62,846 nucleotides of DNA from Candidatus Latescibacterota bacterium (lineage in GTDB: Bacteria > Latescibacterota > 4484-107): the NCBI GenBank assembly GCA_043804415.1, contig JAZDJA010000164.1, positions 1-62,846 on the forward strand. The letters are read 5' to 3'. A program made the translations under genes and the position numbers. Below the pieces are notes generated by a model. That model made no database searches, was not told the DNA's origin, and was given only the letters and a program-made list of their open reading frames with translations. Positions 48,546 to 49,367 of this stretch are shown here, in pieces (the first letter of the stretch is position 1; every line of letters starts with the position of its first letter).

Positions 48546-49025
48546 ATGGATTTTGGTGAAATGGCTCGGTATCTTGGGGCGGGCATTGCGGTGGGATTTG
48601 GCGGAATGGGAGCGGGGATCGGCGAGGGGATGTGCGCGCAGGAGGCCAATGCGGCGATCGCCCGGCAGCCCAAGGTGTCGGACCAGATTGTGCGGACGAT
48701 GTTGGTCGCCCAGGCCGTGGCGGAAACCCCGGCCATTTTTGCCCTGTTGGTGGCCTTTATGCTCGTTTTCGGCGAGACCGCGGGAGAAGGATTGGTGCGT
48801 TTGGCAATCCCGCTTGGGGCGGGAATTGCCATGGGACTCGGAGGATTGGGACCGGGCGTGGGAGCGGGCATCGCGGGCGCGAAGGCTTGCGAGGGGATTG
48901 GCCGTCAGCCTCACCTTTCCGGCTTGTTGACGCGGACGATGTTGATTGGACAGGCGATCTCACAGTCAACGGCCGTATATTCGCTGGTGATTGCCCTGTT
49001 GCTGATTTTTGTGATCGGACAATGA
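48546..49025 (+). CDS. atpE: duplicated (four-helix, two-hairpin) F0 c subunit
   Basis: 159 aa. Hairpin 1 is GIGEG...ARQP...AQAVAETPAIFALLVAF. Hairpin 2 is GVGAG...GRQP...[23 protein letters not shown], with Gln at the carboxylate position. Confidence 0.85.
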   Translation: MDFGEMARYLGAGIAVGFGGMGAGIGEGMCAQEANAAIARQPKVSDQIVRTMLVAQAVAETPAIFALLVAFMLVFGETAGEGLVRLAIPLGAGIAMGLGGLGPGVGAGIAGAKACEGIGRQPHLSGLLTRTMLIGQAISQSTAVYSLVIALLLIFVIGQ

Positions 49026-49106
49026 AGAAACCTCCGGAATCTGGCAGGTCTCAGATGCTTCGGGAGGCAGGTCGATGTGAGAAGTTAACTCGAAAGGAGG
49101 AGTGGC

Positions 49107-49367
49107 ATGATCGAAGGGATCACGGGTGCGGATTTGGCAAATGCGGCAGCATACCTTGGAGCTGGGATTGCCATGGGGTTTGGAGCAATAGGACCGGGCG
49201 TGGGAGAGGGATTTGCAGCCGGAAAGGCATGCGAGGCCATTGCCCGGACGCCCGAGGAAGCGGGTCTGCTGACGCGGACGATGTTGATCGGACAGGCGGT
49301 ATCGGAGTCGACCGGGATCTATTCATTGGTCATTGCGCTGCTGTTGATCTTTGTCGTGGCCAAGTGA
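49107..49367 (+). CDS. atpE: F0 c subunit (single hairpin)
   Basis: 86 aa. GVGEG...ARTPE...[23 protein letters not shown]. Confidence 0.9.

Follow-up and report, generated by a model that had tools for sequence, protein, structure and literature searches.

To our knowledge, the F-type hybrid rotor has so far rested on Acetobacterium woodii and a few acetogens. In Clostridium aceticum, a four-helix/two-helix pair of c genes (c1 and c2) goes with a Na+-stimulated ATPase. The ring of A. woodii consists of nine single c subunits and one c1, with 10 Na+ sites and 3.3 Na+ per ATP (PMC9171764; PMC7793690). The live ion sites per turn of the c-ring set the ion/ATP ratio, and it is this ratio that decides whether an anaerobe near the thermodynamic limit can drive ATP synthesis with a small gradient, or use ATP to build a steep one. 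Here, we describe a locus on contig JAZDJA010000164.1 (assembly GCA_043804415.1) of a Candidatus Latescibacterota bacterium, analysed as a single window of 62,846 nucleotides, in which a gene for two fused c hairpins, one of them with a dead ion site, is followed by a gene for an ordinary c subunit. We think it rather likely that the products of both genes are the components of a single heteromeric c-ring in an F1Fo ATP synthase/ATPase, most likely Na+-coupled; the locus would then represent the hybrid-rotor solution in Latescibacterota, combined with a two-carboxylate Na+ motif. The two genes and their ion-site residues are given below, with positions numbered as in the I. tartaricus c subunit and the register taken from a hidden Markov model alignment and from phmmer alignments to 1YCE, 3ZK1 and 4BEM.

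48546..49025, + strand: fused c gene, 159 amino acids (aa); two Pfam PF00137 ATP-synt_C stretches, E 1e-33
48546..48782, + strand: hairpin 1 of the fused c, aa 1-79, placed by alignment; both carboxylates kept; positions 32/63/65/66/67/70 are E27, V58, E60, T61, P62 and F65
48624-48626, 48723-48725, 48729-48731 and 48738-48740, + strand: hairpin 1 codons for E27, E60, P62 and F65, respectively
48783..49025, + strand: hairpin 2 of the fused c, aa 80-159 and the stop codon, placed by alignment; predicted dead site; positions 32/63/65/66/67/70 are A107, I138, Q140, S141, T142 and Y145
48864-48866 and 48963-48965, + strand: hairpin 2 codons for A107 and Q140, respectively
49107..49367, + strand: single c gene, 86 aa; one PF00137 ATP-synt_C stretch, E 2e-18; positions 32/63/65/66/67/70 are E34, V65, E67, S68, T69 and Y72

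The original prediction, made from the sequence of the window, had proposed a tandem c-c fusion next to a separate single c subunit, a second hairpin resembling the latter, and the loss of both carboxylates from this hairpin, with Gln in place of the essential Glu; each of these proposals was borne out. In the alignment, Gln140 stands at the position of the ion-binding Glu65, matching both the Gln of the A. woodii c1 motif AQTT and the Glu65 of 1YCE and 3ZK1, and Ala107 occupies position 32, so that, judged by this register, both carboxylates of hairpin 2 are gone. The hairpin keeps S141, T142 and Y145 and is 66-68% identical to the single c, compared with 48% between hairpin 1 and the single c and 40% between the two hairpins. 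For hairpin 1, the proposal that both carboxylates are kept was correct (E27 and E60), but it had overlooked the residues nearby: T61-P62...F65 replaces the S/T66-T67...Y70 of the motif, with P62 and F65 falling at positions 67 and 70.

The single c subunit carries the complete two-carboxylate Na+-type motif. Its best single-hairpin matches are the c subunits of Fusobacterium nucleatum (3ZK1, E 6e-22) and I. tartaricus (1YCE), and, in agreement with the earlier proposal, the residues E32, V63, E65, S66, T67 and Y70 are exactly those with which the F. nucleatum c11 ring (3ZK1/3ZK2) binds Na+ and one proton. The protein is 84-88% identical to single c subunits of other phyla, ion-site residues included. 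The F. nucleatum ring is homomeric, built of single hairpins and with no fused subunit, and the window differs from it by the fused gene, by one extra helix-1 residue in the single c and by having its Na+ coupling predicted only. At 49164-49314, the single-c gene has a match of >=99% identity in a groundwater metatranscriptome (a contig of run X2), which is weak evidence of transcription as DNA carry-over is possible.

With A. woodii (c1 plus c2/c3; 4BEM), the locus shares an F-type operon in which a four-helix c gene is directly followed by a two-helix c gene. The closest relative of the fused protein among solved structures is A. woodii c1 (4BEM_J, E 1e-33, full length), and an AlphaFold model of the protein (predicted local distance difference test score 89.8), with four helices and a linker of about eight nonhelical residues, superposes on 4BEM_J, its top Foldseek match, with a template-modelling (TM) score of 0.89 and a root-mean-square deviation of 1.6 A over 159 columns, the window side being a predicted structure. 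The two proteins agree also in detail: A. woodii c1 reads ETSGIF in hairpin 1 and QTTGIY in hairpin 2, thus having Gln at the Glu position of hairpin 2, Phe in hairpin 1 where the single c has Tyr70, and the same pattern between neighbours as in the window. On the other hand, the identity is only 37%; the helix-1 ligand of the dead hairpin is lost in the window (Ala107), whereas A. woodii c1 keeps a Gln; position 67 of hairpin 1 is Pro, unlike in A. woodii c1; and the N-terminal extension of c1, some 20 residues in length, is missing (159 vs 182 aa). The composition of the A. woodii ring has been measured, whereas the system in the window is known from its genes.

The likeness to the A. woodii hybrid rotor, as originally proposed, therefore stands for the gene pair and for the best sequence and fold match, but it probably does not extend to common descent. 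A Q32 lineage, with helix 1 one residue shorter and a Pro28 in hairpin 1, comprises A. woodii and the Bacillota loci; the window belongs with other phyla to an E32 lineage, which has the extra helix-1 residue (AMGFGAIG vs AM-IAGIG) and first hairpins without Pro28. The lineage split, the helix-1 indel and the Pro28 difference favour a separate origin, and we consider that the fusion in the window probably arose independently of A. woodii c1, although hairpins of about 80 residues are too short for a robust tree. The resemblance is thus probably one of function and not of orthology. The closest relatives of hairpin 1 are the first hairpins of other multi-hairpin genes, and those of hairpin 2 are single c subunits at large, which it matches in other phyla (68-72%) as well as it does its own neighbour (68% in this comparison). 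A local duplication in the recent past, or gene conversion between hairpin 2 and its single-c neighbour, was considered as a separate candidate and rejected on these identities. Combining the hybrid design with a two-carboxylate motif, lacking the helix-1 ligand in its dead hairpin and coming from a different lineage, the locus departs from the A. woodii type.

A duplicated hairpin with one site lost is found also in the four-helix proteolipids of V- and A-type enzymes (the eukaryotic 16-kDa c, Enterococcus hirae NtpK and Eubacterium limosum A1Ao c), which come next after 4BEM_J as fold matches with TM scores of 0.75-0.82 and with only 19-27% identity to the window protein. Their rings usually consist of the duplicated subunit alone, whereas its partners in the window are F-type (a, b, delta, alpha and gamma). 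An assignment of the fused protein itself to the V/A-type proteolipids (NtpK or 16-kDa c) was rejected: the NCBIfam models for V-type K gave 37-67 bits against cutoffs of 101-211, and the neighbouring genes are F-type.

The residues overlooked in hairpin 1 turn out to be informative of how a blank site is built. In c-rings binding Na+, the site lies between two hairpins, residues 32 and 65 coming from one and the backbone oxygen of residue 63 and Ser66 from the adjacent one (PMC3692424); in F. nucleatum, Ser66 and Tyr70 hydrogen-bond Glu65, Thr67 holds a water ligand, and Ser66 and Val63 are provided by the adjacent subunit (PMC3692424). Among the 120 best database homologues, residue 70 is Phe or Leu in 172 of the 173 hairpins that precede a hairpin with Gln65, Tyr occurs almost only before a Glu hairpin, and no such rule holds for the reverse pairing of neighbours. 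We then used 79 clean multi-hairpin genes from GTDB species representatives as a covariation set, and cross-tabulated Tyr70 of hairpin n against Glu65 of hairpin n+1 ([[30,11],[2,132]], Fisher p 3e-22) and Thr67 of hairpin n against the same Glu65 ([[28,13],[2,132]]); both the test and the counts ignore the shared ancestry of the genes, and the pattern recurs across differing hairpin numbers and phyla. The last hairpin keeps S/T-T-Y in 77/79 genes and the first keeps E32/E65 in 67/79. Of the 137 non-Glu hairpins, 128 have Gln; position 32 of the non-Glu hairpins is A, S, G, N or C, and the hairpin preceding them reads T/S-P/A/S-F. As positions 67 and 70 are lost when the next hairpin has Gln, the altered residues belong to the dead site of the neighbour, and P62 and F65 of hairpin 1 are, on this covariation, the neighbour's share of the dead site of hairpin 2. 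The covariation provides independent sequence evidence on the construction of blank sites.

The arrangement that we envisage is one where each hairpin would give residues 32 and 65 to one site, and residues 66, 67 and 70, together with the backbone oxygen of residue 63, to that of the hairpin following it. Single c subunits would then form complete two-carboxylate Na+ sites (E32/E65 with V63/S66/T67/Y70). In the fused subunit, E27 and E60 of hairpin 1 would make a normal site with the preceding hairpin, and S141, T142 and Y145 of hairpin 2 a normal site with the following one, while the internal site, combining A107 and Q140 from hairpin 2 with T61, P62 and F65 from hairpin 1, would be blank. 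Each fused copy would add two hairpins to the circumference but only one transported ion, and a ring of N hairpins with k fused copies would move (N-k)/3 ions per ATP. Our prediction of Na+ as the coupling ion is based on the completeness of the F. nucleatum motif. We infer the co-assembly in one ring, the copy number k of the fused subunit, the coupling to Na+ and the physiological direction, be it ATP synthesis or Na+ pumping. A lower ion/ATP ratio favours a steep gradient built from ATP and, as a speculation, would fit a fermentative anaerobe in which the enzyme works as a Na+ pump.

Several considerations weigh against a mixed, Na+-coupled ring. Its assembly from both proteins is deduced at the level of the genes, and the covariation between neighbours, besides carrying the phylogenetic nonindependence noted above, would be equally expected in a ring made of the fused subunit alone. 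The Na+ specificity is predicted from the motif only, and the groundwater metagenomes in which read matches place the organism are not an obviously Na+-rich source. The beta and epsilon subunits are encoded elsewhere, outside the window, and the enzyme is seen here as a partial gene set. Lastly, public reads do not reach the hairpin junction: those with the exact window sequence come as fragments from four groundwater runs only, and none covers 48546-48950.

The architecture could also be hybrid as proposed but coupled to H+, or to both Na+ and H+, instead of being Na+-specific, and this we regard as a lesser but real possibility. The groundwater habitat would fit it, and Methanosarcina acetivorans, whose c-ring sites are predicted to have two glutamates, couples to both Na+ and H+ (PMC3692424), meaning that two carboxylates alone do not fix the specificity. 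In the single c of the window, however, all six ion-site residues are those of the Na+-driven F. nucleatum enzyme, and they are included in the 84-88% identity that holds across phyla. H+-type c subunits usually lack S66/T67, which also counts against a proton-coupled ring.

A further alternative is that the two genes serve two homomeric rings, one entirely of single c subunits with full sites and the other entirely of fused subunits, half dead, V-type-like and suited to ATP-driven pumping, the choice between them being made by expression or assembly. The neighbour rule would be satisfied here too, hairpin 2 of one fused subunit abutting hairpin 1 of another, and V-type and some A-type rings consist purely of four-helix c subunits with one site each (PMC9171764). 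We nevertheless hold separate rings to be unlikely. The two c genes lie within one operon with a spacer of only 81 bp, each gene being preceded by a Shine-Dalgarno sequence (GGGAGG for the fused c and AAGGAGG for the single c), and no terminator- or promoter-like sites were found between them, an operon-wide scan giving counts equal to the shuffle expectation. The 81-nt spacer was also evaluated for RNA structure as a possible control of the expression ratio, and its stability was no better than that of shuffled sequence (z 0.17). Moreover, across phyla, 70/79 loci have a single c directly downstream of the multi-hairpin gene, the single c reading E-V-E-S-T-Y in 67 cases, and the only characterised homologous system, that of A. 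woodii, has a mixed 9:1 ring. The one heteromeric ring thus remains our preferred reading.

Its genes form a single F-type atp cluster on the + strand at 46880-53341, with the order AtpZ-AtpI-a-cc-c-b-delta-alpha-gamma and Pfam matches on all nine genes. Besides the two c genes, the cluster consists of the following:

46880..47149, + strand: AtpZ-like small membrane protein, the first gene of the operon; Pfam PF09527 ATPase_gene1, E 4e-15
47106..47519, + strand: AtpI; Pfam PF03899, E 3e-12
47603..48427, + strand: Fo subunit a, starting MSKKHW, with the conserved stator Arg in LAFRLFGN; Pfam PF00119, E 2e-48
49484..49963, + strand: Fo subunit b; Pfam PF00430, E 4e-27
50042..50590, + strand: F1 subunit delta (OSCP); Pfam PF00213, E 1e-36
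50795..52330, + strand: F1 subunit alpha; Pfam PF02874, PF00006 and PF00306
52469..53341, + strand: F1 subunit gamma, the last atp gene in the window; Pfam PF00231, E 2e-100

In other bacteria, AtpI proteins are reported to act as chaperones of c-ring assembly (as cited in PMC4154653). An AtpZ-like gene in the matching position is found in two relatives, L001 and L005, and such an ATPase_gene1 (AtpQ/AtpZ-like) gene could hint at an N-type operon, that is, an alternate, Na+-exporting F1Fo ATPase in place of the standard F-type. The c subunits of N-ATPases also tend to have a Na+ motif with an extra Glu. The operon includes delta (OSCP), by which it is marked as F-type, and the order Z-I-a-c-c-b-delta-alpha-gamma is not the beta-epsilon-Q-R-a-c-b-alpha-gamma of N-type operons. 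The NCBIfam assignments agree: subunit a and both c proteins fall in F0F1 families, with the F-type c models NF009999 and NF005521 and the subunit a model TIGR01131 above their cutoffs, whereas the N-ATPase models stay below theirs (TIGR03322 at 64 and 94 bits vs 131; TIGR03306, for subunit a, at 148 vs 302). An N-type identity is consequently very improbable.

The fused frame itself shows every sign of long conservation. Although the exact 159-aa protein of the window has no match on record, its nearest stand-in, the 96%-identical P0001, occurs on 23 independent contigs, derived from samples in ENA, Logan, NCBI and JGI, and two more distant proteins, P0003 (78% identical) and P0117 (62%), have two hairpins, the Ala and the Gln, and the operon slot, all as in the window. 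The survey of relatives that had been suggested for the fused gene found it in five GTDB species representatives labelled Candidatus Latescibacterota, the closest being 95% identical. Compared with L001, the fused gene has 54 synonymous and 5 nonsynonymous differences, and hairpin 2 alone has 31 and 0; across all nine comparisons, omega (the ratio of nonsynonymous to synonymous rates) is 0.02-0.23, at synonymous divergences (dS) ranging from 0.65 to saturation (above 2). Purifying selection thus acts on the dead hairpin no less strongly than on the single c. The notion that the 159-aa frame represents two neighbouring c genes, merged through a mistake in sequencing or assembly or through the recent loss of a stop codon, against which the original prediction had warned, can be set aside with near certainty, as the architecture recurs in these independent proteins and species, the frame is intact and under purifying selection at such divergences, and the linker of about eight residues holds no relic of a spacer or ribosome-binding site where the genuine spacer to the single c is 81 bp.

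The original prediction had called the arrangement rare, which does not hold. Scanning the genomes of GTDB species representatives gave 207 relatives; the 80 best loci, which we examined, span at least 10 phyla, with record titles naming Latescibacterota, many Desulfobacterota, Planctomycetota, Cloacimonadota, Margulisbacteria, Hydrogenedentota, Spirochaetota, Coatesbacteria, Mcinerneyibacterium and Bacillota. The fused genes have 2 (23 genes), 3 (24), 4 (25), 5 (6) or 6 (1) hairpins with 0-3 carboxylate sites, and the operon order in the relatives is (Z)-(I)-a-cN-c1-b-(delta)-alpha-gamma-beta. The multi-hairpin genes of Desulfobacterota, Planctomycetota, Cloacimonadota, Margulisbacteria and others share with the window the E32 lineage, the slot a - multi-hairpin c - single c - b, the Q65 with a small residue at position 32, the T/S-P/A/S-F in the preceding hairpin, and a nearly identical single c; they differ in having 3-6 hairpins with 0-3 live sites, compared with two hairpins and one live site in the window, and in mostly keeping beta after gamma. 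Cultured carriers are known within Desulfobacterota, namely Desulfatitalea alkaliphila (L021), Desulfacinum infernum (L025), Desulfoferrobacter suflitae (L035) and Desulfocarbo indianensis (L065), and the protein homologue search adds Thermodesulforhabdus norvegica as a further one. In a search of 1.84 billion proteins clustered at 50%, 94 representatives match at E <= 1e-30, with lengths of up to 1139 aa.

This opens a wider but more tentative interpretation, in which the pair in the window may be the smallest member of a broad, undescribed series of F-type rotor genes with 2-6 hairpins, in which most sites have the blank design and a two-carboxylate single c, 84-88% identical across phyla to that of the window, is almost always alongside; the series would occur in anaerobes of at least 10 phyla, cultured sulfate reducers among them, and be independent of A. 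woodii c1 in origin. No description of F-type c genes exceeding two hairpins came up in a literature search, though the key hybrid-rotor papers fell outside that search and a prior listing is possible. If true, rings of the series would give F-type enzymes a low ion/ATP ratio like that of V-ATPases, and possibly an adjustable one. The graded versions, from one live site in two hairpins to one in six, are spread over many uncultured phyla and the cultured Desulfobacterota, and with the latter carrying multi-hairpin genes, the question is open to experiment. The series is a more interesting lead than the single locus.

Individual loci vary in instructive ways. In L018-L022, L025, L031, L042, L065, L078 and others, genes of 3-6 hairpins have the carboxylate in only 1-2 of these (1/6 in L042), and a full E-V-E-S-T-Y single c follows each of them. 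The two-hairpin c genes of L013-L017, L023 and L030 (Syntrophobacterales) and L028 have E-V-E-S-T-Y in both hairpins, representing fusion without site loss, and the Syntrophobacterales loci have the reversed order a - single c - fused c. At the other extreme, the four-hairpin genes of L057 and L082 (Hydrogenedentota) have no carboxylate at all, with M-G, C-Q, S-Q and S-Q at positions 32/65, and the two-hairpin genes of L033 and L061 (Mcinerneyibacterium and a relative) have Gly at position 65 of hairpin 2; a normal single c adjoins each of these four genes. The search of the cluster representatives also returned very long c-like proteins, P0157 (1139 aa), P0144 (968), P0197 (784) and P0162 (524), with 5-12 matched stretches at 26-36% identity.

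Some observations concern the operon more generally. The beta P-loop motif was searched for across the 62.8-kb window and not found, and the beta and epsilon genes are absent from the window. They are missing also from the loci of the Latescibacterota relatives, whereas in most other phyla with multi-hairpin c genes beta comes directly after gamma. In the window, gamma is followed by a tetratricopeptide repeat (TPR) protein (in the region 53342-54539), and the break after gamma is seen likewise in the Latescibacterota relatives L001, L005 and L007. In L005, the 78%-identical Latescibacterota relative, an extra 81-aa hydrophobic open reading frame with no Pfam match (L005:10486-10731) lies between the fused and single c genes; it is absent from the window. 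Finally, the 5' part of the subunit a gene, the start codon of which was chosen by comparison with subunit a of L001, contains an in-frame 33-bp x3 tandem repeat at 47643-47741 with 93% matches. The repeat encodes VEVGLAWKAPx three times, as against once in the close relative L001, and makes the N-terminal segment of subunit a polymorphic in length.

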